Source of the DNA: a virus
Length of the DNA stretch: 11,709 nucleotides
Reading direction: 5' to 3' (one strand)
Virus genome (UHGV): UHGV-0058547
Every line of letters begins with the position of its first letter. The first letter of the stretch is position 1. The position numbers and the translations under genes are program-made. This document shows, in pieces, positions 1-11,709 of this stretch. Under the pieces are notes generated by a model. The model was not told where the DNA came from and did not search any database. It saw only the letters and a list, made by a program, of their open reading frames with translations.

Positions 1-699
1 ACCGGAGGAAGTAGGAACAGTAGCGGACTCACCACCACCGGACTCACCACCACCGGACTCACCACCGCCAGACTCACCACCACCATTTTGGGGGGTTGAG
101 GGTTTATCAGAGGGGTCAGCTACAGCACCTGTAGGCTTCCATGTTGCAGCGCAAACAGTACCATCACCCTGACAAACAATGACACCAGTAGCCTCATATT
201 CACAGCCGTTATAGTAGATATAGCGACCACCATCATATGAATCAACATTATTAAATACACCTTCTTCTGGCGGCTTCGCTTCACAAATTTCTTCTGGTGT
301 CGGGTCAGTAGGTTTTTCATCAGGAACAGAACGCTGAATATTACCAACAATATAAGCCGTTAAAGACCAATATTTATCCTTCTGCCCTGGTGAATCGCTG
401 TAAGTACAATCGCCAGTAAAAACAAGACGGAATTCAGAATCAGGCCAGATACCCTCATAAGTTGGTTTAATCCGAGTAAATACACTCTGAGCACTGGATT
501 TAGCACCCTGACAAGCGGAGGCCTGCATAGCAGCATCAATATAGTAAACCGTTATCTTAGAGCCATCCTGATTGGTTATTTGCTTACTTTCAGCATAGGC
601 AGAACTTTGATAAGTGGATTTAGTAATGCTTTCCCATGACTCAGCATGTGAAAAAGGAGAAATGAGGACAGCGGAAAGAATTAATATTTTCCTTCTCAT
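1..699 (-). CDS. gIII: Adsorption/minor coat protein pIII, N-terminal portion (partial; ORF runs off the left edge)
   Basis: ATG at 699 on the minus strand; signal-peptide-like [19 protein letters not shown]. The motif [28 protein letters not shown] resembles the M13 g3p N1 (TolA-binding) segment YEGCLWNATGVVVCTGDETQCYGTWVP (recalled) and is preceded by about 150 aa of another domain, an IKe-like domain order. It ends in (GGGES)4. The frame is open from 699 to 1; I translated 1..141 and the start codons myself. Confidence 0.85.
25..84 (-). repeat. Four tandem 15-nt repeats (ggactcaccaccacc and variants) encoding the (GGGES)4 linker of pIII
   Basis: Direct reading: copies at 25-39, 40-54, 55-69 and 70-84; translation on the minus strand gives GGGES four times. 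Confidence 0.9.
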
Positions 700-707
700 A
701 GTAACCC

Positions 708-736
708 GCTTTAATAAAGGGGCAACGAGTGCCCCT
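708..736 (-). terminator. Candidate rho-independent terminator after gVIII
   Basis: On the phage strand: 7-bp stem AGGGGCA / UGCCCCU (718-724 pairs with 730-736), 5-nt loop, then U-rich UUAUUAAA. It sits between the gVIII stop (746) and the gIII start (699), where Ff phages have the strong gVIII terminator. Confidence 0.5.
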
Positions 737-745
737 GAGTGAAAT

Positions 746-988
746 TCAAACCGCTTTTGAAGAGAATTTTTTGAAAATACGAATGGCAAGCCCAGCGCCA
801 ACCACAGCAACAACAACAGGCCATACTTTACCAATGAGATCATTTGCCTGAGTCAACAAAGCATCCATTGCCTGACCTGCATAATCAGTACCACCTGTAG
901 CGCCTTCAGCCGCAAAAGAACTTGCAGAAATAAAAAGCGCAGTTGAAGCCAGAGCAATTTTATATTTAACAGTAGACAGAATTTTCAT
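746..988 (-). CDS. gVIII: Major coat protein pVIII precursor
   Basis: 80 aa with signal peptide ending SSFA|AEG; mature part AEGATGG...[26 protein letters not shown] closely resembles the M13 (…FKKFTSKAS) and IKe (…FKKFSSKAV) coat proteins (recalled). GGAG 9 nt upstream of the ATG. Confidence 0.93.
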
Positions 989-1007
989 AGGAATAACTCC
1001 ATTAAGG

Positions 1008-1103
1008 TTACATTAATCGGTCAGAAAATGATTTAAATGAACCGACCGCATAGAAAAGGGCAAAACCAAAGGTATAAGCCCCGAAGAAATAAACGATATA
1101 CAT
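1008..1103 (-). CDS. gIX: Minor coat protein pIX-like (31 aa, hydrophobic)
   Basis: MYIVYFFGAYTFGFALFYAVGSFKSFSDRLM. The ATG overlaps the gVII stop (TAATG). Size, hydrophobicity and position match Ff gIX; no strong sequence identity is expected. Confidence 0.7.
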   Translation of the reverse strand: MYIVYFFGAYTFGFALFYAVGSFKSFSDRLM

Positions 1104-1189
1104 TAACGAAAGACCCCCGCAGTAATCGCGCCGAGGCCAAAAGAAATAACGATGCCAGACGCTATCAAAATTTGAATAACATCGTCCAT
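1103..1189 (-). CDS. gVII: Minor coat protein pVII-like (28 aa)
   Basis: MDDVIQILIASGIVISFGLGAITAGVFR, translated by hand from the minus strand. The C-terminal half resembles M13 pVII ...ISVVLCFALGIIAGGQR (recalled). Lies between the gV-position ORF and gIX. Confidence 0.7.
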   Translation of the reverse strand: MDDVIQILIASGIVISFGLGAITAGVFR

Positions 1190-1191
1190 AT

Positions 1192-1509
1192 TTAACCTTT
1201 GATCTCTGCGATGCCACCATCGGAAGCAACATTATAAGTTACACCTTCCCTACCCTCCATTGACCACGCACGGACATAGACAGGAATTTGAACTAATTTC
1301 CCAATGAAAGCATTCGCCTGGTTCATTAGACCTGCGTTAACGAGAGCCTGAGAAACTCGAATAATAATTTGATCCTGCTTTGTACCACCAAAACCATCAG
1401 GTATTTCAAGGCCAATACCAATTTCATTATAATAGCCCTGACCATTAACTTTATTACGTTGGCGGGCTCCCAACATTTTACCCTTAACGAAAAGACCATA
1501 ATTAGACAT
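1192..1509 (-). CDS. 105-aa protein in the gV position; candidate ssDNA-binding protein
   Basis: ATG at 1509 with AAGGAA 7 nt upstream; placed between gII and gVII as gV is in Ff phages. Longer than Ff/IKe gVp (87-88 aa) and not obviously similar to M13 gVp by eye, so the function is assigned from position only. Confidence 0.55.
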   Translation of the reverse strand: MSNYGLFVKGKMLGARQRNKVNGQGYYNEIGIGLEIPDGFGGTKQDQIIIRVSQALVNAGLMNQANAFIGKLVQIPVYVRAWSMEGREGVTYNVASDGGIAEIKG

Positions 1510-1520
1510 ATTACTTTCCT

Positions 1521-2615
1521 TTAATGCCAGCTACTGGCGTGCGAAATACGGTTGTAATCGAAAATAAAACCTTTCTCATAAATCCATAAGGGGATTTCCG
1601 CTGGCTTGGCTTCCAGCGTTCTTATTAGCGGAACAACGTTATTAGAGTCTGGTGAATCACAATAGAAATTAATATCGATACCGAACGAAAGCAATTCTCT
1701 TCTATGGCGATAAAAAGTGTTATGAGGTAACATTTCTTTCATGTTAGCCCCTTGTTTCCAAAGTAAATAAGTTGACTGTATTTTTCTTGGCAGTTTCGTT
1801 ATTTTTTCATCACTTAAAATAGCATTCTGATTCATTTCTATTCTCCCTACATATTCAGAGAATAATTGACGTGGTGTTTTCATATTCCAGTTAGCGCCAA
1901 GCGTTAAATTTAAATCAATAAGCTCAGTTGTTCTTAATGTTAATTCAATACGTAATTTATCTTTCGTCCAGTCCAGTAACCCGGCTCGTACAAACTCTTC
2001 GGCTATCTGGTGCCCTTTTTTACCAGAAACGTGTTCATCATATTTTGAATAAAATTTCAGACTCCATCGACGGGAGTTTTTACCTAAATAAACTGTACCG
2101 CCTTTCCCACATGCGCGACCATGGCGTGTTTTAGCTTTAAATTCGGCGGCATAAAGCCATGATCTGACATTTTCCAGCGTAGATAATGAATACATGTAAT
2201 TAATGTCAATACGTGAAATTTTATACTGACCTGCCATAACGGCTTTATAAGACGCTAAATCATGAGGAATATTCAATAAGGATAAAATCCTGGCATAGAC
2301 CGTCAACATGAGCCCTTGTATATCATCCGACCCAACAACAGAATGCCCCTGCAGAAACTTGGAAGGATTACCATCAATGTACAAATGTGTCGCTTTACCT
2401 TCGCCATTAGATCCTATCGATCGTACTTTCATCGTTGCTTCATGCGAACCGCGAACAGTCAGTCGCTTAACGGTTTCCCACTCAATTGCACCGTCAGCAT
2501 CAACGCTGACAACACTCCCCGCCGGAAGCGGTTTGTGTGTGCAAGGGAAAATCCCGGTAAGCCAATCGATCACGAATAAATCCTCAAAATTACAAAAATG
2601 ACGACTTACTAACAC
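1521..2615 (-). CDS. gII: Rolling-circle replication initiation protein pII
   Basis: 364 aa. GNPSKFLQGHSVVGSDD and SNNVVPLIRT align with M13 pII KASPAKVLQGHNVFGTTD and CNNVVPLVRF (recalled). The only in-frame start after the upstream stop is GTG at 2613-2615, with no obvious SD, so the start is uncertain. An in-frame internal start for a pX-like product is possible but not resolved. Confidence 0.85.
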   Translation of the reverse strand: MLVSRHFCNFEDLFVIDWLTGIFPCTHKPLPAGSVVSVDADGAIEWETVKRLTVRGSHEATMKVRSIGSNGEGKATHLYIDGNPSKFLQGHSVVGSDDIQGLMLTVYARILSLLNIPHDLASYKAVMAGQYKISRIDINYMYSLSTLENVRSWLYAAEFKAKTRHGRACGKGGTVYLGKNSRRWSLKFYSKYDEHVSGKKGHQIAEEFVRAGLLDWTKDKLRIELTLRTTELIDLNLTLGANWNMKTPRQLFSEYVGRIEMNQNAILSDEKITKLPRKIQSTYLLWKQGANMKEMLPHNTFYRHRRELLSFGIDINFYCDSPDSNNVVPLIRTLEAKPAEIPLWIYEKGFIFDYNRISHASSWH

Positions 2616-2742
2616 ATGAGTTCAGTAGTTCATTAGTGTTTTAACATTACACCAGTGAGCTAGTGAGTTCAAGAGGATTGGATGATGTGAGTTCATGAGC
2701 ATGTATACTCACTTCAAATATTGCATTGAACGAGCGTAAAAA
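2616..2742. promoter_or_regulatory. Divergent control region between gII and the RHH gene, with three copies of GTGAGTTCA
   Basis: Copies at 2617-2624 (TGAGTTCA, overlapping the gII start), 2663-2671 and 2687-2695, plus partial GTGAGC at 2655-2660. A TATACT -10-like hexamer sits at 2704-2709 ahead of the RHH ATG at 2743. No -35 element identified. Confidence 0.45.
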
Positions 2743-2925
2743 ATGGCAAAGCGCACGACTTATAACGTGACGGAAGAAAGAAAAATGAAACTAGAACGAC
2801 TGGCTATAAATGCCAGTGTAAAACTAGGAAAAACAATTACATGGACAGAGATTTTAGGTTATCTGATTGATAACTACTCTAAAGATGCAGCAGAAGATCT
2901 CATGTCTGCCAAACAAAAGGATTAA
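2743..2925 (+). CDS. Small ribbon-helix-helix (CopG/Arc/MetJ-like) DNA-binding protein; candidate phage repressor/regulator
   Basis: 60 aa. Basic N-terminus plus alternating strand KRTTYNVT, then helix EERKMKLERLAINASVKLG, loop and second helix ILGYLIDNY: the classic RHH pattern. Transcribed divergently from gII, as rstR is from rstA in CTXphi. Confidence 0.6.
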   Translation: MAKRTTYNVTEERKMKLERLAINASVKLGKTITWTEILGYLIDNYSKDAAEDLMSAKQKD

Positions 2926-2943
2926 GTACCACGAATGGTACAA

Positions 2944-2970
2944 ACGTGCAGTATTACCTACACTGCACGT
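2944..2970 (+). other. Stem-loop (8-bp stem ACGTGCAG / CTGCACGT, 11-nt loop) followed by TCTTTATT; possible attenuator/terminator or protein binding site
   Basis: Direct reading: 2944-2951 is the reverse complement of 2963-2970. Lies between the RHH stop (2925) and the next ATG (3014). Confidence 0.3.
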
Positions 2971-3013
2971 TCTTTATTGTGCGGATTTTGAACAGCAACA
3001 AAGGATCAAAAGG

Positions 3014-3436
3014 ATGAGTAGAAATAACGAAACAAGCGGCGTTGAACTGGTTGTTGTAGGCGTATTTGCTTTCTGTCTGGCAGTTGTTGCCTGGCTAATG
3101 AAAACTTTCGATGTTGAATGGCAAACAGCACTGGAAACTGCGCCTGGCCTGATAGTCTGGCTGCTTGTTGTCGGTGCGGGGATCTTTTTCGGGATCAAAA
3201 TGGAAACTGGCCTTATTCGCTGGGGTGCTCCACTGGCGATCGCCCTTCTGATTCCGGTATTCAAGCCAATTCTTAAGGAAGCTGCCGGAGTTCGTGAAAC
3301 GGGTGGGCTGGTTTTCGATGATATGGTTTCGTGGTATGGAACTGGCTGGGGAATGTCTCTGATGTTCTTCGGGATTCTTATCGTCGGATACGGTCTGCTT
3401 TATTGGTGGCACAGAAGGAATTCATATTATTGGTGA
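3014..3436 (+). CDS. 140-aa integral membrane protein with four predicted TM helices; function unknown
   Basis: ATG at 3014 preceded by AAGGA. Hydrophobic stretches ELVVVGVFAFCLAVVAWLM, GLIVWLLVVGAGIFFGI, APLAIALLIPVF and MSLMFFGILIVGYGLLYWW. The longer track ORF from 2867 lacks an RBS, and its extension is unlikely. Confidence 0.6.
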   Translation: MSRNNETSGVELVVVGVFAFCLAVVAWLMKTFDVEWQTALETAPGLIVWLLVVGAGIFFGIKMETGLIRWGAPLAIALLIPVFKPILKEAAGVRETGGLVFDDMVSWYGTGWGMSLMFFGILIVGYGLLYWWHRRNSYYW

Positions 3437-3502
3437 ATGTCAATCACTTGAATTTACAGGTTTTTTATAATTTCAGCCCGCGCTAGTTTGATATTGTGAA
3501 AG

Positions 3503-4084
3503 GTGAAGATGAGTATGCAACCGAATGAAGAAATGGACCTCAGGAAATTTTACGCAGAGGGAACAGCTGACTACTTAAAAACTAAAATCAAAAAAAGCGA
3601 ACGACTTTTAAAAATAAACCAATATCTATCATTTGCCCTCCCTGTCCTAGTTGGAGGATACGCATCGGTTGATCACAGCTCCAAATATTTTGATTTTTTA
3701 GTTTGGGGCACAGGGATATTATCAGTGATAGTCTTGCTTTCTAATTTATACACACTGGTCATGAAGACTGATGAAAATTTATCTCGATATCTGGAATCAT
3801 ACTCTTTCAATAAACTCCTAACTGATTTGTATGGCGAACTGTCGAGCATGTTTAAATCAAAGACAGGCAACCAGCAACCCGCTAACCATTTGTTTTCAGT
3901 GATAAAATCAAAAGATGACTTCAATGCCAAGGAAGATGAAAAATATGTTAGCAATAATGATAAGAAACGGATTATGTTCGACATTCTGGTAAAGAAAAAT
4001 AAAGAATGCGTACGTTGCAATAAAATACCGACTAAATTTAACAAGCGGAAAGGTTGCACAAATTGTGGCAATCTCGTGAAATAA
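3503..4084 (+). CDS. 2-TM membrane protein with C-terminal CxxC-x12-CxxC zinc ribbon (SLATT-like topology); function unknown
   Basis: N-terminal helix, then TM hairpin YLSFALPVLVGGYASV / LVWGTGILSVIVLLSNLYTLV, a charged helical region, and C-terminal ECVRCNKIPTKFNKRKGCTNCGN. Start ambiguous between GTG 3503, ATG 3509 and ATG 3515; GAAAGG precedes. Confidence 0.6.
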   Translation: MKMSMQPNEEMDLRKFYAEGTADYLKTKIKKSERLLKINQYLSFALPVLVGGYASVDHSSKYFDFLVWGTGILSVIVLLSNLYTLVMKTDENLSRYLESYSFNKLLTDLYGELSSMFKSKTGNQQPANHLFSVIKSKDDFNAKEDEKYVSNNDKKRIMFDILVKKNKECVRCNKIPTKFNKRKGCTNCGNLVK

Positions 4085-4095
4085 AGGAGAAACAA

Positions 4096-4287
4096 ATGAG
4101 TTATAAAGTAGATCAAGTCAAAGCTCTCTGGCTTCAATTGACTGATGCGGAGAAAAAAGAATTTACAACATATCTTTTTAATGGTGAAAAAAAATCCTTA
4201 CGTGAAGGATTCGAAAGTTTTAGTGTGAATAAAAGCACTACAATGCAATTTGGTGATGCAAACGTCTGCCCTGCTTGCGGAAAATAA
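4096..4287 (+). CDS. 63-aa small protein ending in CPACGK; function unknown
   Basis: AAAGGAGA 5 nt upstream of the ATG at 4096; begins 12 nt after the preceding stop (operon-like); followed by a strong terminator. Confidence 0.5.
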   Translation: MSYKVDQVKALWLQLTDAEKKEFTTYLFNGEKKSLREGFESFSVNKSTTMQFGDANVCPACGK

Positions 4288-4329
4288 AATCTAAAAGATT
4301 TTGGTTCGCACAATGACGTTATGCTAAAG

Positions 4330-4366
4330 AGGCCGCTGCGGGATTCGATTTTCGCAGCGGCCTTTT
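4330..4366 (+). terminator. Rho-independent terminator ending the RHH/membrane-protein operon
   Basis: 11-bp GC-rich stem AGGCCGCTGCG (4330-4340) pairing with CGCAGCGGCCT (4353-4363), 12-nt loop, then TTTT. Confidence 0.75.
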
Positions 4367-4396
4367 CAACATAACGAGTCCTACATTATGCGCACC
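4364..4396 (-). other. dif-like XerC/XerD recombination site (site 2), long central region
   Basis: Minus strand reads GGTGCGCATAA-TGTAGGACTCG-TTATGTTGAAA. E. coli dif is GGTGCGCATAA-TGTATA-TTATGTTAAAT. XerC arm 11/11, XerD arm 9/11, central region 11 nt. Confidence 0.65.
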
Positions 4397-4555
4397 AACA
4401 TAAACCAAGGGAGAATCCAGTGATTTGTGGACATCCTTGTTCTCGCAGAATATGGATGTGCTGAGTCTGGTTGGTTCGCCTAACGGTTGAAATGTCTTGC
4501 GGCCTTCACTGGGCTTGTTGAGTGTTCTGAATGTTCGCTTCAGGAACTGATTCAA

Positions 4556-5647
4556 ATGAAACGATTAATACTTGCTGCGACTGTAATAAGTGCAAGCCTG
4601 CTGCCATTTACCTGTTCGGCAAATGCCGACTCACTGGGTATCAATAAAGACTGCGATAACCATCCTGTCAGCCAGTACGGCATGGACACCATTACCGCAT
4701 TCAGTCAGTACAAGACGGAATCGAAAAAATTTAAAGATGCACTGACTGCGTTCTGCAATAAAGGCAAAACCATGGGCGACATGGGATTTGAAGCTGCCAA
4801 TGCTCACTCTCTTGCTGAAGCAAGGAAATGGACTGACTCCAGTCTTCCGGGGGGAAATGAAGAGCAGAAAAAATTTTCAGCAGCCATGGGGAGCCTGCTT
4901 TACTATGCAATGCTGAATGGATTCTCTGGTTTTGACTATCCCAGGTCGCCCGAGCAAAAAGAAAAATCAGTAAGCACATTTAATCCAAATGAGATATGTG
5001 ATGACATATCATCTAAAGCAGCCAAATATTCAACCTCGAATCTCCCCCCTCAAGTACAGATTTCATTAGCTGAGTGGAATCAAATCAAAGGCGAGTTTCA
5101 GATGGTGTGTTTTGCGGGAGTTATGGCGGGTAACAATCGCCAGTCGGTTGACTCAAAAATATTGGCTGGAATGAATGATATAGGCCCAGAAGTGAATTTG
5201 AGTGCTTATCGTTCTGGTTCGGAATACCCAAAGCCTCGCAGCAAAAACAACACGGAAAAAATTGATGCTACAGCAAGGGAGAAAGCGGCTGCAAAGAAGA
5301 AAGCAGATGCAGCCAGAAAACAAAGTGCCACCAACAAAACAAAGCAGGCTGACGATTATAAATCCAGGAGTGTTCGCCTTGACTCCCCCGATTTTCAACG
5401 CTTTCAGTCTTCACTCAGAAATGAATTTATGCGGCGAATTGGTGATGCGAAGCGTTTTTCAGGAAAAGAATGTTCAATAAATGTCTGGATGTCACAGAAA
5501 GGTGAGGTTCTGTCAGCCAGGAAGGAATCCGGAGATGAAGAGCTTTGCTCTGTGGTATTGCAGGCATCGAAGGGAATGAGGCTTAGCCCTATGAGTAATG
5601 AAGTTTACGGAGTGTTCCGTAATCCATCCCTCAACTTTAAATTCTAG
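4556..5647 (+). CDS. Secreted (signal-peptide) protein with K/A-rich helical linker and C-terminal TolA domain III-like domain
   Basis: Likely start MKRLILAATVISASLLPFTCSANA (signal peptide) at 4556, AGGA 10 nt upstream. C-terminus GKECSINVWMSQKGEVLSARKESGDEELCSVVLQASKGMRLSPMSNEVYGVFRNPSLNFKF aligns with the E. coli TolA C-terminus GKTCTLRIKLAPDGMLLDIKPEGGDPALCQAALAAAKLAKIPKPPSQAVYEVFKNAPLDFKP (recalled). Preceded by a Lys/Ala-rich stretch like TolA domain II. No TM anchor. Confidence 0.7.
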   Translation: MKRLILAATVISASLLPFTCSANADSLGINKDCDNHPVSQYGMDTITAFSQYKTESKKFKDALTAFCNKGKTMGDMGFEAANAHSLAEARKWTDSSLPGGNEEQKKFSAAMGSLLYYAMLNGFSGFDYPRSPEQKEKSVSTFNPNEICDDISSKAAKYSTSNLPPQVQISLAEWNQIKGEFQMVCFAGVMAGNNRQSVDSKILAGMNDIGPEVNLSAYRSGSEYPKPRSKNNTEKIDATAREKAAAKKKADAARKQSATNKTKQADDYKSRSVRLDSPDFQRFQSSLRNEFMRRIGDAKRFSGKECSINVWMSQKGEVLSARKESGDEELCSVVLQASKGMRLSPMSNEVYGVFRNPSLNFKF

Positions 5648-6102
5648 TTCATGCCGGGTAAGAGTCTTCACTTTTGTGGGGATTCTTATTTTCTTTTTGT
5701 TGTTATTGTCAGCTCAAGCCGCATGGCTCTCCTGCGGAGGGCTTAATATTGGGATAATATTGAAACATCAAAGACAGATGCAGATAAGTACAGAAAACCG
5801 ATAATAACAATTAAACAGTAAGTCTGTATAAGAGAATAACAGAATATATAAAAGAATTAACCCCGGTTGGCGATTTGGCGATGGTAACACAGATATTTAA
5901 ATCTGTAAAATGGTTATATTTATTTTTTTATTTACCCACCCTATCGGGTGATTCCGGCGCAGTCCTGACCCTGAGTACGCTCCCTGTAATGCACCATGCG
6001 CAACGCCAGAGTCAGTGGCAATGCAAAGCCATGACTAAGGCCAAAATCACCCCAAAACCGCATACAGGCAGTCAGCGGTCACGATGTAAGCAAAATACGA
6101 GA

Positions 6103-6122
6103 TACTGTATAAATAAACAGCC
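6103..6122. promoter_or_regulatory. LexA (SOS) box-like palindrome TACTGTATAAATAAACAGCC
   Basis: CTGT-N8-ACAG with an AT-rich spacer; 16/20 matches to the E. coli consensus TACTGTATATATATACAGTA. Contains a TATAAA -10-like hexamer. Lies in an 0.8-kb noncoding stretch about 340 bp upstream of the HNH_3-like gene. Confidence 0.5.
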
Positions 6123-6460
6123 CTGCAATTGTCAGGCATATGCGCCCTCTCACACTGACACCCCCCCTGTTCCGCCCTGTTTATTGCATCTGTACAGCCA
6201 TCTGAGCGCATCCGGCTGCAACCTGACGCATTTGCATGTGCCGTATTAATGATGCCACACAGAGCGCCTGACGGTTTGTACCATCATCTGTCACAATTCA
6301 TTGTTTGAAAAATTTTACATTTTATTTTTTGAAGTGATTACATAAATATAATCCATCTCTCCGGCATGAGTGCCTGACTGAAGGTGAATCGAAAAAGAAG
6401 GACCCGCCCCGATTCTTTTTACTCCCTTCCCTTTCAGTTAAATCACGCAGGAGAAATATC

Positions 6461-7408
6461 ATGCCCCGCTACAAAAAAGGTATCCGTAATAATTGCTTTC
6501 ATCAAAATTATACTCATGACGTATTGTTCCCCGGCGCAACATTCAGAACCCGACATAATGGAGAATGCGCCATTCTTGGCCGCTCTGATGATAAATCAAG
6601 GCGAGGCTATTATGTCGTGGAATTCAAAGACAGTGGCATCATCAAGGAAGCCTATGGCTCGCATATTAAAACTGGTTCTGTATCAGACGAAGCTTTTCCA
6701 TCATCGGAGGAAGAACGACGAAAGTTACTGATGACACCAAAATATTACGGCGTCGGATATATTGGTAATGGATGTCATTCAACTATTGAAAACACCCGAA
6801 CACACCAAAGAACGAGAGCATTCATACTCTGGCATAACATGCTGGCAAGGTGCTACATGACAACCAAAGGGAAGCAGTATTTTAAAGGCTACAAAGGTGT
6901 CACTGTATGCGAGCGATGGCATAACTTTCAGAACTTCTGCAATGACCTTCCAAAATTGCATGGCTACAACAAATGGAAGGATAATCCGGGAGAGTATGAG
7001 CTCGATAAGGATTACTCACATCGCCGGATTTATTCTGCTGACACGGTGGCATTTATCAGCACAGAAGAAAATGCCAGGGAAGCTGGATTACGACGCGTTG
7101 CCATGAAGATTCCTTCCGGGCATTATCATGAAATAAATAAAATTCGAGATGAGATATTAATGGAGGCTGAAGATGAATTAAAAAACAATCAAATTCATTA
7201 TGAAGTTGTTCTTGACGGGAATATGAAAGTAATCCTGTGTGAAACTCCTTATGGCACAGTGTTGTTCTGGCCTCTCACAAAAAAGATTCAGCGTAATTGC
7301 TACATGATTGATGGTGATGTACAGGTTTATGTTTATTACCTGCGCTGGCTCATACTTCAGTGGGAAAACAGAAATCCCGACATAAACTGTGTTGCTACAA
7401 CCTGTTGA
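6461..7408 (+). CDS. 315-aa protein with central degenerate HNH_3-like module; putative DNA-binding protein or inactive homing-endonuclease relative
   Basis: AGGAG 7 nt upstream of the ATG. Central motif W-HNM-LARCY ... YFKGYKGVTVCERWHNFQNFCND ... YELDKDYSHRRIYSADTVAFISTEENAR matches the phage HNH_3-family pattern W..M..RC ... YGGRGI.VC..W..F..F ... IDRID.DGNY.P.NCRW.T..EQ..N (recalled), but the canonical catalytic residues are not evident. Confidence 0.6.
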   Translation: MPRYKKGIRNNCFHQNYTHDVLFPGATFRTRHNGECAILGRSDDKSRRGYYVVEFKDSGIIKEAYGSHIKTGSVSDEAFPSSEEERRKLLMTPKYYGVGYIGNGCHSTIENTRTHQRTRAFILWHNMLARCYMTTKGKQYFKGYKGVTVCERWHNFQNFCNDLPKLHGYNKWKDNPGEYELDKDYSHRRIYSADTVAFISTEENAREAGLRRVAMKIPSGHYHEINKIRDEILMEAEDELKNNQIHYEVVLDGNMKVILCETPYGTVLFWPLTKKIQRNCYMIDGDVQVYVYYLRWLILQWENRNPDINCVATTC

Positions 7409-7589
7409 TGATGCTATAAAATAGTCATAAAATAACCGGCATTTCACAATGCTATCTATTAATAAGAAGAAACGAACATTCAGGATGTATCTGTAATTCC
7501 GCTGTTGCAGTGATTTTCTGTGCCAGAAAACAAGTGACAACGTCTGGCAGCTCATTGCAGAAGGCTAAATGCCAGCACTTCGTGCAGTC

Positions 7590-7619
7590 ATTTAACATGT
7601 TCAACACATTATGCGCACC
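7590..7619 (-). other. dif-like XerC/XerD recombination site (site 1)
   Basis: Minus strand reads GGTGCGCATAA-TGTGTTGA-ACATGTTAAAT. XerC arm 11/11 to E. coli dif; XerD arm 9/11, with the last 9 nt ATGTTAAAT identical; 8-nt central region. Confidence 0.7.
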
Positions 7620-7657
7620 AATGGTAAGGATGGCGGGAACTGGCGTTACCGGTGCCG

Positions 7658-7891
7658 TCATTGGTCACAGACCGTAATCCACTGGCCCAGGACGTCTTTC
7701 AGGCAATGTTGGCATAAATCCAGTTTTAAGCGATTACTGTCACCAAAAATTGAACCGTATCCAGCTAAGTGATTAACAGACAGAAACTCATTGAACTCAA
7801 TGTCATCTACCACCGTCTTCGCATGGCGACCACAGCGATCGCAGGTCTTCGCACATAACATTACAGTATCGCTGGATGTGAAAAATTGCAT
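7658..7891 (-). CDS. 77-aa Cys-rich protein (CxxxCxxC ... CxxC); putative zinc-binding protein
   Basis: AGGAG 5 nt upstream of the ATG at 7891; six cysteines including C-x2-C pairs at residues 17/20 and 60/63. Same orientation as the phage core, downstream of gIV. Confidence 0.55.
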   Translation of the reverse strand: MQFFTSSDTVMLCAKTCDRCGRHAKTVVDDIEFNEFLSVNHLAGYGSIFGDSNRLKLDLCQHCLKDVLGQWITVCDQ

Positions 7892-8008
7892 TTTATCTCC
7901 TCGTAATGCTGCCGCGCCGAATCAGCAATAACGCTAAAAAAACAGAATTGTTCGGCTTGGCCAACCCCTGACACTAACAAAAGCAAGTTTTGTCATTGTC
8001 CGGGGTTA

Positions 8009-8317
8009 TCATATAAACCAATAGACCGTCCTTACGCCATTCTGGTTATCAATAACATAGCCGCATTGTTTCCTTAAAAATTCTTCTGCTAAATCAATGG
8101 CTTTTACAGAAATCTCATAAGAAGGAAGTAAAGTGTATCCTTTCCCTTCACTGGCAGCTGCTTTGATCGCATCCAGAGTATTATCAATCAGTAACAGAGC
8201 AAGTGATGCTTCATTTACCTGAGCCGAAGAACTTCTGGCTGCAAGTGTCATTGTTTTTGCTTCTTCCGCTGTAATCGTTCGTTCTGCCAGAGCAGATAAA
8301 ATCCCATAAGAATCCAT
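8009..8317 (-). CDS. 102-aa hypothetical protein
   Basis: ORF in phage orientation immediately downstream of the gIV-end hairpin; weak GGGG RBS; no recognisable motif. Confidence 0.4.
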   Translation of the reverse strand: MDSYGILSALAERTITAEEAKTMTLAARSSSAQVNEASLALLLIDNTLDAIKAAASEGKGYTLLPSYEISVKAIDLAEEFLRKQCGYVIDNQNGVRTVYWFI

Positions 8318-8342
8318 TAGTTACCCCAATCAATAATGTCCA

Positions 8343-8391
8343 TTTGATGGATAGCGAGCAGGGCTCACGCACCTACCCGCTATCCATCAAA
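8343..8391. repeat. Perfect 14-bp inverted repeat (TTTGATGGATAGCG ... CGCTATCCATCAAA) with 21-nt spacer, overlapping the gIV stop
   Basis: 8343-8356 is the exact reverse complement of 8378-8391. Position corresponds to the start of the Ff intergenic region (gIV terminator / packaging-signal hairpins). Confidence 0.6.
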
Positions 8392-9652
8392 GTGGACGAA
8401 TGATATGTGCTGTAAGCAAAATATACATAATACGCTGTTCATTGCTGTCTGCCTTGCTACTGAAAATCCAGCCTATAAGAGGAATTTTACTTATAACTGG
8501 AACTGAACGCTCGGCATTGCTGAACGATGAATCGATAAGCCCCCCCAATAACAACGTCTGACCATCCTTAATCTGGACTGTCGTCTGAATCTGGCGCTGA
8601 TTAGTAATAATATCGGATGCCTGATCATCATTGCTGATTGAATCAGCGCGAGTGTCGATAGTCAGAACTAGTTGCCCGTTACCCATGACAACAGGCGTTA
8701 CCTTGAGAGAAACGCCAACATCATGACGCTCGATAGTCTGAAACGGATTATTTACCCCGGCAGATTCGCCCGTTACCTTTCCGGTGATAAACGGCACATT
8801 CTTACCTACGGAAATGTAACCAGTCTGACCAGACTGAGTAAGAATACGCGGCGTTGAAATCACCTTAGAGCGTGAATTACTCTGGACAGCACGCAGAGAC
8901 AGCGCCAACACGTTACCATCAAAAATACCAAAAGAACCGCCCGCCGTAGAAAGAGCGCTACCCAGTGCAGAAGTATTAAAGCCCCCCGCAACCTTATGAC
9001 CGGATGCAGAACCTGCCGCAAACGATAAATCAACGCCATCAGACAAGCTGGTTTCAAACATCAGCGACTGAATGAGAACCTGATCGCGGGCAACATCCAC
9101 AGAATTGATAAAATCGGACAGAACCGGCAGCAGCTCGTCAGGCGCAGAAACAATCAGCGAGTTATTGCCTGGATAATCCACGACATTACCACCACCATTA
9201 GAATCAAGATAAATTTTAATCAGTTGCTGAACATCGGACGATCTAACTTTTGTCAGCTTAAAATTTCTGACCGTAAGCGCCACAGGTACTGGCTGGTAAG
9301 ATGGCTCAGAAGGAAAAGTATCATAAGACTGGTTATCAGAATCATCGGAATCCGAAACCATCTGTGAAGGTAATTTAGACGGCAAAGAGACTACCGCAGG
9401 ATTGCCAGAAAGCATGACAAAACCGTTAGCATTCAGAACAGACTTAAAGAAATCATCAATATTTGTTGGATTAACATCAGCATTAAATACGGTTACGTTT
9501 CCTTTAATATCAGGATTAACAATAACAGGCTTGCCAGTTTTTGAAGAATACCACTGAACAAATGAGCGAACAGATGAATTATTTAAATTAACAGTTTCAG
9601 CAGAAACGCAGAATGAACAGGCAAATAAAAAAGCAACAATAACAGAGCGCAT
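8387..9652 (-). CDS. gIV: Secretin pIV (phage export channel)
   Basis: 421 aa from ATG 9652 (AGGAG 8 nt upstream). N-terminus MRSVIVAFLFACSFCVSAETVNLNNSSVRSFVQWY parallels M13 pIV MKLLNVINFVFLMFVSSSSFAQVIEMNNSPLRDFVTWY; conserved secretin core GGSFGIFDGNVLALSLRAVQSNS..., VPFITGKVTGESAGVNNPFQTIERHDVGVSLKV, DGQTLLLGGL, IPLIGWIFSS (recalled). The track start at 9745 is a spurious upstream extension overlapping gI. Confidence 0.93.
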   Translation of the reverse strand: MRSVIVAFLFACSFCVSAETVNLNNSSVRSFVQWYSSKTGKPVIVNPDIKGNVTVFNADVNPTNIDDFFKSVLNANGFVMLSGNPAVVSLPSKLPSQMVSDSDDSDNQSYDTFPSEPSYQPVPVALTVRNFKLTKVRSSDVQQLIKIYLDSNGGGNVVDYPGNNSLIVSAPDELLPVLSDFINSVDVARDQVLIQSLMFETSLSDGVDLSFAAGSASGHKVAGGFNTSALGSALSTAGGSFGIFDGNVLALSLRAVQSNSRSKVISTPRILTQSGQTGYISVGKNVPFITGKVTGESAGVNNPFQTIERHDVGVSLKVTPVVMGNGQLVLTIDTRADSISNDDQASDIITNQRQIQTTVQIKDGQTLLLGGLIDSSFSNAERSVPVISKIPLIGWIFSSKADSNEQRIMYILLTAHIIRPL

Positions 9653-9659
9653 AATAATA

Positions 9660-10754
9660 TTACTCCTGACAGGTAACAGTCTGTAAATAACGGCCTTTTC
9701 TAATAACAACACGACAGGCATCTTTAATATCAACGGAATAACCATCTTTAATCAAATCAAAATACTGATATTTCATACCTTTTGCATCAACAAACGTAAC
9801 GGAAACGTCAAAGCCAAGTTGTGAAAAAGAATTAATAGAAAGTCGGGGTAAGTCACTGGACGAATCAGGCGTTACCGCCCTCGCCTGTTCAGCATAAGCA
9901 GATTTAATAGCTGAGATTTCATCAACATTCTTTCCAGACTGGAGCCAGAAACCAAACGCAAGCCCCAGCGCCAAAAAAGAAAGCATTAATATAAGACGGT
10001 TCGATTTGCGAAAATAAATTTTAGTGAGGCGCATATAATAATTAAATCCTCTGTGAACAGAAAATTGACCGTGCGTGATAAATGGTGGCAAAAGCGAAAA
10101 TGCGCCATGAGGATAATTATCTGTGAACGCTTGTTTGGTATTGTAAGCAGAATAAAGAGATTTTCCTGTATATATCCATTTATCAACAGTGATTGAATTA
10201 ACATTATCACCATATTTGACAATGCCAAAGTGTACCTTTGGTAAAGAAAATCTCGCCCCTGAAACCAAATTCATAATGGAGCCAACAAAAGGAATGTTTA
10301 ATTTATCTGAACGGCGACAATAAACAACATGCTCAGCAAGCGCCAGACGAGCTTGCTTATCCATTATCGAAATATCCTGAATCAAAAATATAATATCCCA
10401 GCCTAATTTTCTGGCATGTAAAAACCAGTCAATAACAGGTTGTCTGTCTTTATCACCCCATGAGCGGGAATTAAACCAAGTACCACATTCATCAAGTACA
10501 AGGAGGCCATTACGGGATTCATCGTAAGATGTATTCCCAATACCAATAGCAAGTAAATCATTTAATGAAGGCTTGTCAGGAATGCGAATAACGCGCGTTT
10601 TTTTCGCATAACGCCCAACCATAGGCATATTATGCAATTTAAGATCAAGATTAGTGGCAACAGGACAACCCTTAGCAAGTCTTTCCTGTATTCTGGAAAC
10701 ACTAACAAGTGTCTTGCCTGAGCCTAATTTGCCTGTTACTACATAAACCGCCAT
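9660..10754 (-). CDS. gI: Assembly ATPase pI (Zot-like)
   Basis: MAVYVVTGKLGSGKTLVS... with Walker A; long colinear similarity to M13 pI MAVYFVTGKLGSGKTLVSVGKIQDKI...LLVLDECGTWFNTRSW...DWFLHARKLGWDIIFLVQD...AEHVVYCRR (recalled). ATG immediately follows the gVI stop (TAAATG). Confidence 0.93.
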   Translation of the reverse strand: MAVYVVTGKLGSGKTLVSVSRIQERLAKGCPVATNLDLKLHNMPMVGRYAKKTRVIRIPDKPSLNDLLAIGIGNTSYDESRNGLLVLDECGTWFNSRSWGDKDRQPVIDWFLHARKLGWDIIFLIQDISIMDKQARLALAEHVVYCRRSDKLNIPFVGSIMNLVSGARFSLPKVHFGIVKYGDNVNSITVDKWIYTGKSLYSAYNTKQAFTDNYPHGAFSLLPPFITHGQFSVHRGFNYYMRLTKIYFRKSNRLILMLSFLALGLAFGFWLQSGKNVDEISAIKSAYAEQARAVTPDSSSDLPRLSINSFSQLGFDVSVTFVDAKGMKYQYFDLIKDGYSVDIKDACRVVIRKGRYLQTVTCQE

Positions 10755-11096
10755 TTAAATCACCCTGTTTGCATAATCAAGAAATTTTTGTTTTAAATCG
10801 AAAACAAAAACACTGATACGAGTAACCATAATAACGTTAACACACGCCTGAAAATGGTCAGGCAATACAGACGCCATTAAATGGGAGAAATCAGCAGGTA
10901 AACCGTTATACATGACCTCAGCAAGGTACTGCATTAAAAGCGTAACAGTTGTTGTAATTAATGCGACCAATGCAAAGGCGATTAATCCTGTTCTGGTAGC
11001 AAGTCGAGCTAAAAAAACCGCCACATAGCCAATAAACAAAGGAACAAGACCAATAAGAAAACGCAACAATGCAGGAATACCTAATAATAAAGGCAT
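10755..11096 (-). CDS. gVI: Minor coat protein pVI
   Basis: MPLLLGIPALLRFLIG... versus M13 pVI MPVLLGIPLLLRFLGF... (recalled). ATG at 11096 overlaps the gIII TGA by one base; the track's GTG at 11099 is one codon upstream. Confidence 0.88.
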   Translation of the reverse strand: MPLLLGIPALLRFLIGLVPLFIGYVAVFLARLATRTGLIAFALVALITTTVTLLMQYLAEVMYNGLPADFSHLMASVLPDHFQACVNVIMVTRISVFVFDLKQKFLDYANRVI

Positions 11097-11709
11097 CACT
11101 CACCCCCTTTGCGAAGCAATGAAGTTAAAGAAGTAAAGACATACCAGAACGTAAGGCAATAAAAAACCCATGAAAGAACATCTTTAATAGTCAGTAATTT
11201 ATCGCAACCAATATCAATCTGATAAACCTCTCCGGGAAAAATAATAAAATCAGAGCAGCCGTTACCATTGGGTAAATTAGGCAGCATAGCACCTTTATTT
11301 AAAAATGCTTCCCATAAAGCACCGTGAGAATCCTTTTCAATTCCCAATTCAGAATCAGCTAAAGTAGAAGCGCCATCTAATTCAGAGTCGCCCTTTCCAT
11401 AACGAGAATCACCACCTGAAGGGTCAGCAAAACGGCCAGCCCCCCGCGTAAGATTGTTAATGGAATCGTCAAGACGATTTATATTATTCCTGGTTTGTTC
11501 ATCGGCATTTTTTTTATCATCTGATGAAGTGTCTTTCTCCGTTAATTTATCATGAATATCGCTGGCTATTTTGGGTGAAGCACCTTCGATCGCAGACTGA
11601 ATATCACCTTTAGAAAGACTGGAACCACTAGAGCCACCGCCAGAACTACCGCCAGAACTACCGCCAGAACTACCGCCAGAACTACCGCCACCGGACTCAC
11701 CACCGGACT
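11096..11709 (-). CDS. gIII: Adsorption/minor coat protein pIII, C-terminal portion (partial; ORF enters from the right edge)
   Basis: Frame is open from the window edge to the TGA at 11096-11098 (translated by hand). C-terminus ...NLPNGNGCSDFIIFPGEVYQIDIGCDKLLTIKDVLSWVFYCLTFWYVFTSLTSLLRKGGE parallels M13 g3p ...ECRPFVFGAGKPYEFSIDCDKINLFRGVFAFLLYVATFMYVFSTFANILRNKES (recalled). Preceded by (GGSS)n and GGES linker repeats. Confidence 0.88.
   Translation of the reverse strand, partial: SGGESGGGSSGGSSGGSSGGSSGGGSSGSSLSKGDIQSAIEGASPKIASDIHDKLTEKDTSSDDKKNADEQTRNNINRLDDSINNLTRGAGRFADPSGGDSRYGKGDSELDGASTLADSELGIEKDSHGALWEAFLNKGAMLPNLPNGNGCSDFIIFPGEVYQIDIGCDKLLTIKDVLSWVFYCLTFWYVFTSLTSLLRKGGE
11641..11688 (-). 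repeat. Four tandem 12-nt repeats (cagaactaccgc) encoding the (GGSS)n linker of pIII
   Basis: Direct reading of 11641-11688; minus-strand translation gives alternating GG/SS. Confidence 0.9.

Follow-up and report, generated by a model that had tools for sequence, protein, structure and literature searches.

The 11,709-nt stretch of DNA analysed here (the window) most probably joins two mobile elements, fused at their attachment sites, in one 11.7-kb unit: a filamentous phage of the UPphi group (element 1, about 8.5 kb, 7620-11709 plus 1-4396) and a separate integrative mobile element exploiting Xer, or IMEX, which we call the module (element 2, about 3.2 kb, 4397-7619). We assign this reading a probability of about 0.8. 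Neither element encodes an integrase; both would insert with the help of the host enzymes that unlink chromosomes, XerC/XerD. The 3.2-kb element appears to be undescribed. The unit is a circle or else a single repeat from such elements in tandem. Both ends of the window lie within the GGGES repeat of gene III, which is split with one half at each end and, in the sequence as given, is not joined in frame.

The attachment sites of the two elements are as follows.
4303-4329, plus strand: site A, one half of the phage attP, dif-like and inverted, GGTTCGCACAA / TGACG / TTATGCTAAAG
4330-4363, no strand: G+C-rich stem-loop (inverted repeat I1) that folds and closes the phage attP hairpin on the XerD side
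4364-4396, minus strand: site B, phage attP half with an 11-nt spacer; the phage-to-module junction lies here
7590-7619, minus strand: site C, module attachment site with an 8-nt spacer; the module-to-phage junction lies here

Sites B (GGTGCGCATAA / TGTAGGACTCG / TTATGTTGAAA) and C (GGTGCGCATAA / TGTGTTGA / ACATGTTAAAT), which the original prediction had picked out as sites 1 and 2, share the same orientation, match E. coli dif at 11/11 positions of the XerC arm and 9/11 of the XerD arm, and differ from each other in both spacer and XerD arm. Their predicted 16-nt identity on the XerC side, ACATTATGCGCACCAA, is present at 4383-4398 and 7606-7621, and their spacers are indeed 8 and 11 nt rather than 6, lengths that are normal for attachment sites of this kind, as in CTXphi. 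Defining a composite site as a XerC arm with at most one mismatch and a XerD arm with at most two, 5-12 nt apart, we found a mean of 0.0005 such sites per dinucleotide-preserving shuffle of the window, and two in none of 2,000 shuffles; arm matches and shuffles together bear out the prediction of two direct dif-like sites. B and C also coincide exactly with similarity breakpoints in unrelated public genomes. Site B recurs as the phage-phage junction of tandem prophages and as the phage-chromosome junction in E. coli UM146, while the right junction of every module copy examined is of the site C type, which is conserved in more than 15 loci.

The phage occupies the two outer parts of the window.
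7620-11709, minus strand: first part of the phage, comprising accessory genes, IV, I, VI and the 3' part of III
7658-7891 and 8009-8317, minus strand: two small UPphi-type accessory genes
8387-9745, minus strand: gene IV, secretin
9660-10754, minus strand: gene I, Zot-type
10755-11099, minus strand: gene VI
1-4302, minus strand: second part of the phage, comprising the 5' part of III, VIII, V and II, followed by plus-strand accessory genes
about 1-699, minus strand: 5' part of gene III
746-988, minus strand: gene VIII
1192-1509, minus strand: gene V
1521-2615, minus strand: gene II
2743-4287, plus strand: accessory genes, including one for a mobilome CxxCx(11)CxxC protein

The inovirus set II, V, VIII, III, VI, I and IV is thus present. 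The pI protein is 66% identical to that of IKe, and g3p carries GGGES repeats. The closest published group is UPphi, which is IKe-like and dif-integrating, UPphi901 having been compared by its description. UPphi901 and the other UPphi viruses are dif-integrating relatives of IKe and I2-2 (Shapiro & Putonti 2020, PMC7307601), marked by IKe/I2-2-like core genes at roughly 70% amino-acid identity. They resemble the phage here in that core, in their GGGES g3p and in integrating in tandem at dif, in E. coli and related hosts; as here, two small genes separate dif from gene IV, and variable ORFs running in reverse lie by dif. The window differs in carrying the extra 3.2-kb IMEX, and a term search of that paper turned up neither a folded two-site attP nor a separate Xer element.

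Public genomes confirm integration at dif. In UM146 the phage lies alone at the E. coli dif, beside hipBA; on its left a perfect dif leads into window sequence starting at 7620, and on its right the junction consists of sites A and B. Where prophage copies are in tandem they are joined exactly, site B being followed by 7620 onward, and UPphi-type prophages reach a median of two copies per phage-carrying E. coli genome. The original prediction, which likened the phage to CTXphi, VGJphi and the CUS-1/Ypf-type prophages, therefore holds as to dif integration; its assignment to CUS-1/Ypf strictly does not, pI and the GGGES repeats placing the phage with UPphi.

The phage attachment site is double. 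Site A, which the original prediction overlooked, is also found in the prophages of UM146 (L003 12307-12333), C10 (L002 3921-3947) and Kluyvera (L013 991-1017). Sites A and B are inverted with spacers of 5 and 11 nt, as in a CTXphi-type attachment site, and on the minus strand they form a predicted hairpin of -30.5 kcal/mol (z -6.8; no shuffle folds as well) that is kept in UM146 and Kluyvera. An Rfam scan of the whole window returned a single sub-threshold match, which lies over this hairpin. The spacer of site B, TGTAGGACTCG, has its first 4 nt (TGTA) in common with the dif spacer TGTATA, on the XerC side only. The paired inverted sites and one-sided spacer homology suggest that the phage belongs to the CTXphi type. 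Removal of 4397-7608 recreates the exact junction of tandem prophages (L002 3921-4040), so that the predicted excision to an ~8.5-kb phage fits; the part of that prediction that left a single attP-like site does not stand, since site B pairs with its inverted partner at 4303-4329 in a folded attP.

We propose that sites A and B would fold, in the packaged strand (the minus strand of the window), into a forked hairpin that mimics dif; that XerC would exchange one strand pair beside its arm, where TGTA matches dif TGTATA; and that replication would then complete phage integration. The spacers of CTXphi are 12 bp at attP1 and 5-7 bp at attP2 (PMC4246890), and CTXphi and RS1 resemble the phage in having inverted dif-like sites with unequal spacers (11/5 here), a packaged-strand fold, dif homology on the XerC side only and tandem prophage arrays. 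They differ in that the sites lie 34 nt apart here as against 90 bp in CTXphi, the phage backbone is unrelated, and the case here is one from sequence. CUS-1phi and Ypfphi have been placed in the same CTXphi-type class (PMC4246890, PMC4266046). Elements of that class integrate irreversibly from single-stranded DNA through XerC only, and their phage is made from tandem arrays.

The module fills the remainder of the window.
4397-4472, plus strand: module, left end, which makes up the loop in the predicted fold
4473-4506, plus strand: site D, a motif conserved between genera that combines CGGTTGAAATGTCTTGCGGCCTT with a XerC-like arm in inverted orientation
4556-5647, plus strand: cargo gene, variable, for a secreted protein of 363 aa whose fold is that of the TolA C-terminal domain (domain III)
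5648-6460, no strand: conserved non-coding core, the cargo terminator followed by about 750 nt that include the upstream sequence of the 315-aa gene
6461-7408, plus strand: 315-aa protein, hallmark of the element family, with homologues in seven genera
7561-7594, no strand: conserved sequence to the XerD side of site C, made up of AAGGCTAAATG, the hairpin GCAC-TTC-GTGC and CATTTA, in that order

Members of the module family have in common the 315-aa protein, the site with an 8-nt spacer and the flanking motifs; the first ~25 nt of the module repeat the sequence that adjoins dif on its XerC side in the E. coli chromosome. The module lacks an integrase, a replication gene and virion genes, and no recombinase was found among its scanned proteins (Pfam, NCBIfam, PHROG and PADLOC; small ORFs with Pfam only), nor did PADLOC defence models match. 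The 315-aa protein matches phrog_2081 (E 2e-35), and in its middle domain it is similar to the part of phage 'HNH endonuclease' families that binds DNA; its AlphaFold model (mean pLDDT 86) gave no strong structural match. The cargo matches Pfam PF06519 (E 6e-11), TIGR02794 and the TolA chains 3QDP, 2X9A and 1TOL in the PDB (E about 3e-9), and module variants of 66% coverage carry other genes in the cargo position. The non-coding core is kept in 86 of the 97 E. coli module copies and can be aligned across five genera. This core of ~800 nt holds no conserved ORF, Rfam match or convincing consensus fold (the covariation term is unfavourable) and no similarity to the phage intergenic region, and so a phage-type origin or packaging signal in the module could not be shown.

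The distribution of the two elements separates them. Among 5,426 complete E. coli genomes, 56 have the phage and 97 the module, the latter including E. coli C and almost always without the phage; the two are adjacent in strain C10 only. Constant co-linearity of the segment with the phage, which the original prediction had said would refute it, is therefore not what is seen. E. coli module copies lie between a perfect dif and a site-C-type junction, as in A27, beside hipA, and the module stands alone at dif in E. coli C, A27 and others. Related modules with the same layout occur in Serratia (in tandem), Yersinia, Buttiauxella and Kluyvera (at dif) and on metagenome contigs, and phage-module arrays in E. 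coli C10 and Kluyvera georgiana. In every case the module has its end exactly at site C and its start directly behind a XerC arm. The predicted pairing of a dif-integrating inovirus with a small piggy-backing element is upheld in that each is found alone at dif, the module also on a plasmid. It is very improbable that the 3.2-kb segment is a phage accessory 'moron' region with site C a decayed duplicate of the phage site: UPphi phages do have variable accessory ORFs beside dif (PMC7307601), but about 96 E. coli genomes, other genera and the plasmid have the segment without any phage, the boundaries of the segment are constant (the site C end and the start after a XerC arm), and site C is unlike site B in spacer and XerD arm. 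The distribution data contradict that reading, and we rejected it.

The plasmid copy locates the crossover. The IncF plasmid pEk72-1 carries the module at a Xer site (96.7% identity, covering exactly 4386-7619), and the empty site in its sister plasmid p49589CZ reads GGTTCGCATAA/CAAAGA/TTATGTTAAAT. In pEk72-1 the arms are swapped, the left junction having the module arm GGTGCGCATAA and the right retaining the plasmid arm GGTTCGCATAA, which places the crossover between position 4 of the XerC arm and the spacer, that is, on the XerC side. The target spacer CAAAGA has no bases in common with the module spacer on that side, and is thus a poor fit to the published rule that XerC-first exchange needs homology by the XerC arm. 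With dif-like arms, an insertion that restores the target at one end and leaves a hybrid site at the other, and no recombinase of its own, the module has the sequence features of an IMEX. A TLCphi-type IMEX was considered and rejected, as scanned module and phage accessory ORFs gave no match to DUF3653/XafT, the Xer activation factor that such elements encode, and the plasmid crossover lies on the XerC side rather than being XerD-first.

How might such a module engage the Xer machinery? In single-stranded DNA its motifs are predicted to make a three-way junction in which a dif-like duplex is restored, a model that is suggestive, not proven. Site D has complements in site C and in AAGGC (7561-7565), and the partner of TAAATG is the outer half of the XerD arm. 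In all taxa tested, forty conserved complementary positions yield one and the same three-way junction (the folds covered eight whole junctions; in ten trimmed sequences, 95% of the cells counted were paired), and the minus strand is the more stable in 8/8 taxa. Natural deletions take out both loops and leave the stems: the left end (4397-4472) is only 8 nt long in Yersinia L009 and metagenome L018, and in L018 the block has lost the inner hairpin while the outer stem is retained. One compensatory change, from G-C to A-T, is accompanied by a G-T intermediate. The shared junction, the loop deletions, the compensatory change and the strand preference argue against a rival account to which we give somewhat less than even odds, namely that the module integrates as double-stranded DNA in the manner of VGJphi, by a reversible XerC-only exchange at a single site C, site D and AAGGCTAAATG being protein-binding accessory sequences or relics. 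That account draws on the presence of both arms in site C alone, on the TGT beside its XerC arm that matches dif, on the thin covariation of the fold (3/40 pairs, with the observed values reached by 26-34 of 500 shuffles), and on the lack of a replication origin in the module, which leaves no obvious route to a single-stranded circle of its own. For a VGJphi-type assignment of the module the signs are mixed: the TGT in common with dif would suit it, and the conserved inverted partner (site D), the foldable structure and a plasmid target without spacer homology would not.

Building on the three-way junction, we put forward, as a tentative proposal that we think rather unlikely, that the modules form a new Enterobacterales family of cassette-like IMEXs. 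The junction would arise from the AAGGCTAAATG hairpin together with site C and its inverted counterpart, site D, and would contain a complete XerC-spacer-XerD duplex, the XerD arm being assembled from two helices. Such modules would integrate as single-stranded DNA and spread on single-stranded vehicles, namely filamentous phage genomes and conjugating plasmids; the 315-aa protein, with its likeness to DNA-binding proteins, would act as a new accessory or activation factor for Xer; and module excision could free otherwise irreversibly integrated phages.

Other known elements differ from the module. The gonococcal genetic island (57 kb) and EludIMEX-1/EcloIMEX (25-29 kb) are also integrase-less, with direct dif-like flanks and a well-conserved XerC side (PMC5357621), and EcloIMEX lies between setB and yeiP rather than at the chromosomal dif (PMC12198106). 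In size these elements exceed the module (about 2-3.3 kb) tenfold, and the module occurs in tandem at the true dif and at plasmid and phage sites, with its own hallmark protein and an 8-nt spacer; size and the setB-yeiP location led us to reject EcloIMEX/EludIMEX as its identity. The pdif modules are bounded by inverted XerC/D-XerD/C pairs with 6-bp spacers. Those of Acinetobacter are small Xer-bounded cassettes that move between replicons (PMC7399989, PMC5790767). Here the sites are direct, the spacer is 8 nt and one site regenerates the target; as the bounding sites have the same orientation in every locus, an Acinetobacter-type pdif module was likewise rejected.

The junction between the two elements is itself rare. 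The module-to-phage junction (7590-7660) is in none of the 5,426 complete E. coli genomes and is also absent from the viral, species-representative genome and metagenome collections searched; a scan of viral contigs for the exact junction pattern and for a general site-C pattern gave no matches. Since this junction is unique to the window, the joined form would be rare or transient. It is improbable that the join is an assembly chimera in which two dif neighbours were wrongly closed through a shared dif-like repeat. Its occurrence in this window alone would fit such an error, but the junction identity is merely 16-17 nt, which assembler word sizes commonly exceed, and each half of the junction is an authentic end of its element; genuine Xer recombination would yield the identical sequence.

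We propose that a crossover at the boundary of XerC arm and spacer, between sites B and C, would give the join. This could happen by recombination of two circles, by co-excision of a dif-phage-module array via the outer dif and site C, or by rolling-circle copying across a phage-module-phage array, all three of which predict the same sequence. A real possibility, though one we would bet against, is that the window is not a free cointegrate but one circularly permuted repeat of a chromosomal dif array, (phage-module)n or phage-module-phage. Arrays holding both elements exist, tandem arrays are typical of UPphi-type prophages in view of their median copy number and of published tandem integration (PMC7307601), and window ends within the gene III repeat fit a contig broken in repeated DNA; yet the order module then phage is in no complete genome or contig searched, the known arrays being phage-then-module only.

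Once joined to the phage, the module could ride in phage particles. Co-excision produces a VGJphi-CTXphi hybrid that goes into particles (PMC4246890), and TLCphi assists CTXphi excision in Vibrio cholerae (PMC6744903). There, neighbouring Xer elements at dif leave as one circle that a phage partner can package (PMC4246890; PMC6744903), as may have happened here. The passenger here differs in being neither phage nor satellite, without replication or virion genes, its hosts are Enterobacterales, and its packaging is a conjecture.

Xer-exploiting elements are known mainly from cholera, where CTXphi, RS1, TLCphi and VGJphi at dif create and reshuffle toxigenic clones. Something similar may be at work in E. 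coli and related bacteria, as the window suggests: a CTX-type phage and a tiny integrase-less element have dif in common, form arrays and, in this window, are fused. The module has three kinds of target, the chromosomal dif, a plasmid site of the multimer-resolution type and a phage attachment site, and could therefore move cargo among chromosomes, plasmids and phages without a recombinase of its own. TolA domain III is a binding target of both filamentous-phage g3p and the group A colicins, and the secreted TolA-domain-III cargo of the module suggests a putative decoy that would protect the host against g3p phages and group A colicins. The presence of the module in E. coli C makes direct study possible. 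The three-way-junction site, if true, would be a new way to build a Xer substrate from single-stranded DNA.

Both dif-like Xer sites claimed at the ends of the 3.2-kb module, sites B and C, are present in the sequence together with the 16-mer that they have in common (copies at 4383-4398 and 7606-7621). Such sites rarely arise in dinucleotide-preserving shuffles of the window: composite sites of equal quality occurred at a mean of 0.0005 per window, and two of them in 0 of 2,000 shuffles. The original prediction also held that the phage would be left with one attP-like site, and here it overlooked an inverted third site, A, which is separated from site B by a G+C-rich stem-loop. The sequence pattern ATTTAACATGTTCAANACATTANGCGNACC could serve to recognise module-type sites in Enterobacterales assemblies.

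Dif-like sites in the window
4303-4329, plus strand: site A, GGTTCGCACAA / TGACG / TTATGCTAAAG, inverted relative to site B
4364-4396, minus strand: site B, GGTGCGCATAA / TGTAGGACTCG / TTATGTTGAAA
7590-7619, minus strand: site C, GGTGCGCATAA / TGTGTTGA / ACATGTTAAAT

The proposal that the 3.2-kb segment is an element separate from the phage is borne out by its distribution, as we find it alone at dif, in other genera and on a plasmid. A search of 5,426 complete E. coli genomes finds the module in 97, with at least 80% of its length present in 29. It is not always co-linear with the phage: among these complete genomes the two adjoin in C10 only. Strain A27 has an intact module, with a perfect dif on one side, a site-C junction beside hipA on the other, and no phage in the vicinity. 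A 99.9% identical module sits at dif in E. coli C (NZ_CP020543.1) and its relatives WG5, C122 and NCTC122, and E. coli C has an ISSen4 (IS3-family) element inserted upstream of the module's TolA-like gene. Loci in other genera, reached through homologues of the module's 315-aa protein, show the E. coli layout in Yersinia, Buttiauxella and several metagenome contigs, modules in tandem in Kluyvera intermedia, and the order dif, module, site C, module, site C in Serratia liquefaciens. In Kluyvera georgiana, a phage-type A+B junction is followed by module, site C and chromosome, on a contig with just ~1 kb left of the junction. Across module loci the site-C spacer reads TGTGTTGA, TGTTTTGA or TGTATTGA, with the fourth position alone varying.

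Some of these loci have further peculiarities. The Buttiauxella module is nearly cargo-free, and an extra site D motif past its right junction (L011 7270-7400) hints at either a remnant or another, distinct module farther downstream. On both a Citrobacter IncF plasmid (L006 2690-2720) and an E. coli contig from a metagenome (L015 3520-3560), the same upstream sequence (...GAGGTGACATTTTAAACTTGCTTTGAC) is joined to the module's left end, with no XerC arm between them; on the contig the result is a composite of 8.5 kb that reaches from dif to site C.

A plasmid insertion locates the crossover. In the Enterobacter kobei plasmid pEk72-1, a module copy of 96.7% identity spans exactly window 4386-7619. 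A synthetic query for the empty site hit 647 plasmids at a coverage of 80% or more, the best at 99.7% identity. The empty site of p49589CZ_IncFII reads GGTTCGCATAA / CAAAGA / TTATGTTAAAT, while the left junction in pEk72-1 is GGTGCGCATAA / CAAAGA / TTATGTTAAAT, with the module's XerC arm, and the right junction is GGTTCGCATAA / TGTGTTGA / ACATGTTAAAT, with the plasmid's XerC arm. Because the XerC arms are swapped between the two junctions, exchange must have occurred between XerC-arm position 4 and the spacer, and this point, as read from the junction sequences, coincides with the XerC cut position. The plasmid and module spacers have nothing in common on the XerC side.

The module's contents are partly exchangeable. 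Its 363-aa cargo protein combines a signal-peptide-like N-terminus with TolA domain III (Pfam E 6e-11; E ~3e-9 against the PDB TolA chains 3QDP, 2X9A and 1TOL). Both phage g3p and the group A colicins bind TolA domain III, and the cargo could conceivably act as a decoy. In variants with 66% module coverage, other genes replace the TolA-like gene, while the module ends, an ~800-nt non-coding stretch and the 315-aa gene (6461-7408) are retained. The non-coding stretch (5648-6460), a terminator-like hairpin followed by ~750 nt of conserved DNA, is found in nearly all variants and across genera; a search of it for a conserved ORF, an Rfam match or a convincing consensus fold found none. Part of it (5658-5962) matches many Citrobacter/Klebsiella IncF plasmids at ~87% identity, and the one inspected, L006, has a related module. 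Elsewhere (P0042, P0049), the middle domain of the 315-aa protein is found as an in-frame insertion within thymidylate synthases (467-543 aa) and in phage proteins with an HNH-endonuclease annotation, a distribution that points to derivation from a homing-endonuclease DNA-binding module. Scans of the module proteins found neither a recombinase nor a replication protein, nor any DUF3653 domain.

Near the module ends, two sequence blocks are kept from genus to genus. One is site D (4473-4506), which combines an inverted XerC-like arm with CGGTTGAAATGTCTTGCGGCCTT; the other, on the XerD side of site C (7561-7594), is AAGGCTAAATG plus a small hairpin. We built and folded the junction of a hypothetical free module circle for eight taxa, and the predicted minus-strand fold was the same three-way junction every time (z -4.3 to -6.8). 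In this fold, the partners of site D are the XerC arm, part of the spacer and XerD-arm positions 3-6; TAAATG (7566-7571) takes up CATTTA (XerD-arm positions 7-12), and an AAGGC/GCCTT pairing closes the junction. Natural deletions remove loops and retain stems, with a 77-nt loop reduced to 8 nt in Yersinia and in the metagenome locus L018, which also has no inner hairpin. Spacer base 4 covaries with site D (G-C, n=5; A-T, n=3; G-T, n=1), and in all eight taxa the minus strand is the more stable of the two, by 2.9-5.9 kcal/mol. In a test made on the very sequences from which the structure was derived, which are 92% identical, only 3 of 40 pairs covary and 26-34 of 500 shuffles attain the observed values. 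We regard a folded three-way-junction attachment site for the module as suggestive, and would put its odds somewhat below even (about 0.4).

The phage carries a set of inovirus genes, all on the minus strand.

Phage genes
1521-2615, minus strand: gene II (Phage_CRI)
1192-1509, minus strand: gene V (inovirus gene)
746-988, minus strand: gene VIII (inovirus gene)
~699 down to 1 (5' part) and 11707 down to 11096 (3' part), minus strand: gene III, split across the window ends
10755-11099, minus strand: gene VI (inovirus gene)
9660-10754, minus strand: gene I (Zot)
8387-9745, minus strand: gene IV (secretin)

Since gene III is divided between both ends, the window is, by its gene order, a circularly permuted molecule or a single unit of a tandem array. 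The cut falls within the gene's glycine-rich GGGES/GGSS repeats (1-100 and 11620-11709; 15-nt and 12-nt tandem units), and the halves are out of frame when joined as given, so that the repeat number at closure is uncertain and exact closure unproven. The packaged strand of inoviruses has the sense of the structural-gene mRNAs, which here makes the minus strand the packaged one. The phage fits the published UPphi group (PMC7307601): its pI shares 66% identity with the IKe protein, its g3p has GGGES repeats, and it integrates in tandem at dif. In UPphi901, according to that description, genes II and V are similar to their Ypfphi counterparts. Among its accessory genes, ORF 3503-4084 matches NCBIfam TIGR04402, 'mobilome CxxCx(11)CxxC protein' (E 1e-41), at a position where UPphi-type prophages elsewhere (UM146) have different genes. 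A membrane-protein-like ORF (2867-3436; phrog_4174) has plasmid copies at ~94-95% identity, for example H31 and H32, where it adjoins an HTH regulator; such copies may explain a large share of the 481 hits to plasmids from the E. coli search.

The phage is also found without the module. Of the 5,426 complete E. coli genomes, 56 contain it, at a median of two copies each. In UM146 the prophage adjoins hipBA; its left junction is a perfect dif that runs into window sequence starting at 7620, and its right junction consists of sites A and B. Beyond the latter, the phage left end recurs in degenerate, N-rich form (L003 12401-12470), which may be a collapsed or poorly resolved extra tandem copy in the assembly. 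At the C10 tandem phage junction, site A, hairpin and site B are followed by window 7620 onward, exactly as in the window minus 4397-7608. Sites A and B are predicted to form a forked hairpin (XerC-arm duplex, asymmetric 11/5-nt bubble, XerD-arm duplex and G+C-rich closing stem), with a fold energy of -30.5 kcal/mol (z -6.8) on the minus strand versus -27.8 kcal/mol on the plus strand, and the same fold recurs in the UM146 and Kluyvera prophages. This predicted structure has the design of CTXphi, in which attP1 and attP2 have spacers of 12 bp and 5-7 bp (11 and 5 nt here) and XerC-only exchange integrates from single-stranded DNA (PMC4246890). Reviews place CUS-1phi and Ypfphi in the same attachment class (PMC4246890, PMC4266046). 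The available text of the UPphi paper describes attachment as a copy of the dif site, with no mention found there of a hairpin or folded attachment site (PMC7307601).

The UPphi-type phage group, the CTX-type attachment design and non-phage IMEXs (integrative mobile elements exploiting Xer) are already known. We found no description of the small element, its hallmark 315-aa protein or a phage-IMEX fusion in Enterobacterales in the limited full-text literature covered. The non-phage IMEXs GGI and EludIMEX/EcloIMEX measure 25-57 kb, whereas the module is ~3.2 kb (PMC5357621, PMC12198106), and EcloIMEX elements are located at setB-yeiP rather than at dif (PMC12198106). A TLC-type identity is ruled out by the missing DUF3653 match in the ORFs scanned and the crossover on the XerC side; a pdif module is likewise ruled out, since the bounding sites are direct whereas pdif sites are inverted.

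Some element ends also resemble the sequence beside dif. The module's first 10-40 nt past the XerC arm (window 4397-4421) mirror what the host chromosome has next to the XerC arm of dif, each in the version of its own species (L004, L007, L009 and L018; E. coli 23/24, Serratia 20/24, Yersinia first 11 nt), while Kluyvera and plasmid copies show no such likeness; the phage's counterpart flank (7620-7640; AATGGTAAGGATGG) is similar to that of Yersinia dif. Crossovers or conversion tracts running outward from the XerC arm could account for this copying.

No second instance of the module-to-phage junction was found in the E. coli genomes or in the viral, species-representative genome and metagenome collections searched. 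A crossover between sites B and C at the XerC-arm/spacer boundary would give both window junctions exactly. The phage replicative form might have recombined with a module circle, or rolling-circle copying might have run over a phage-module-phage array. Arrays of the dif-phage-module kind occur in C10 and Kluyvera, and excision between the outer dif and site C of such an array could also have released both elements together, a route that would parallel the VGJphi-CTXphi hybrid and the TLCphi-assisted excision of CTXphi (PMC4246890, PMC6744903).
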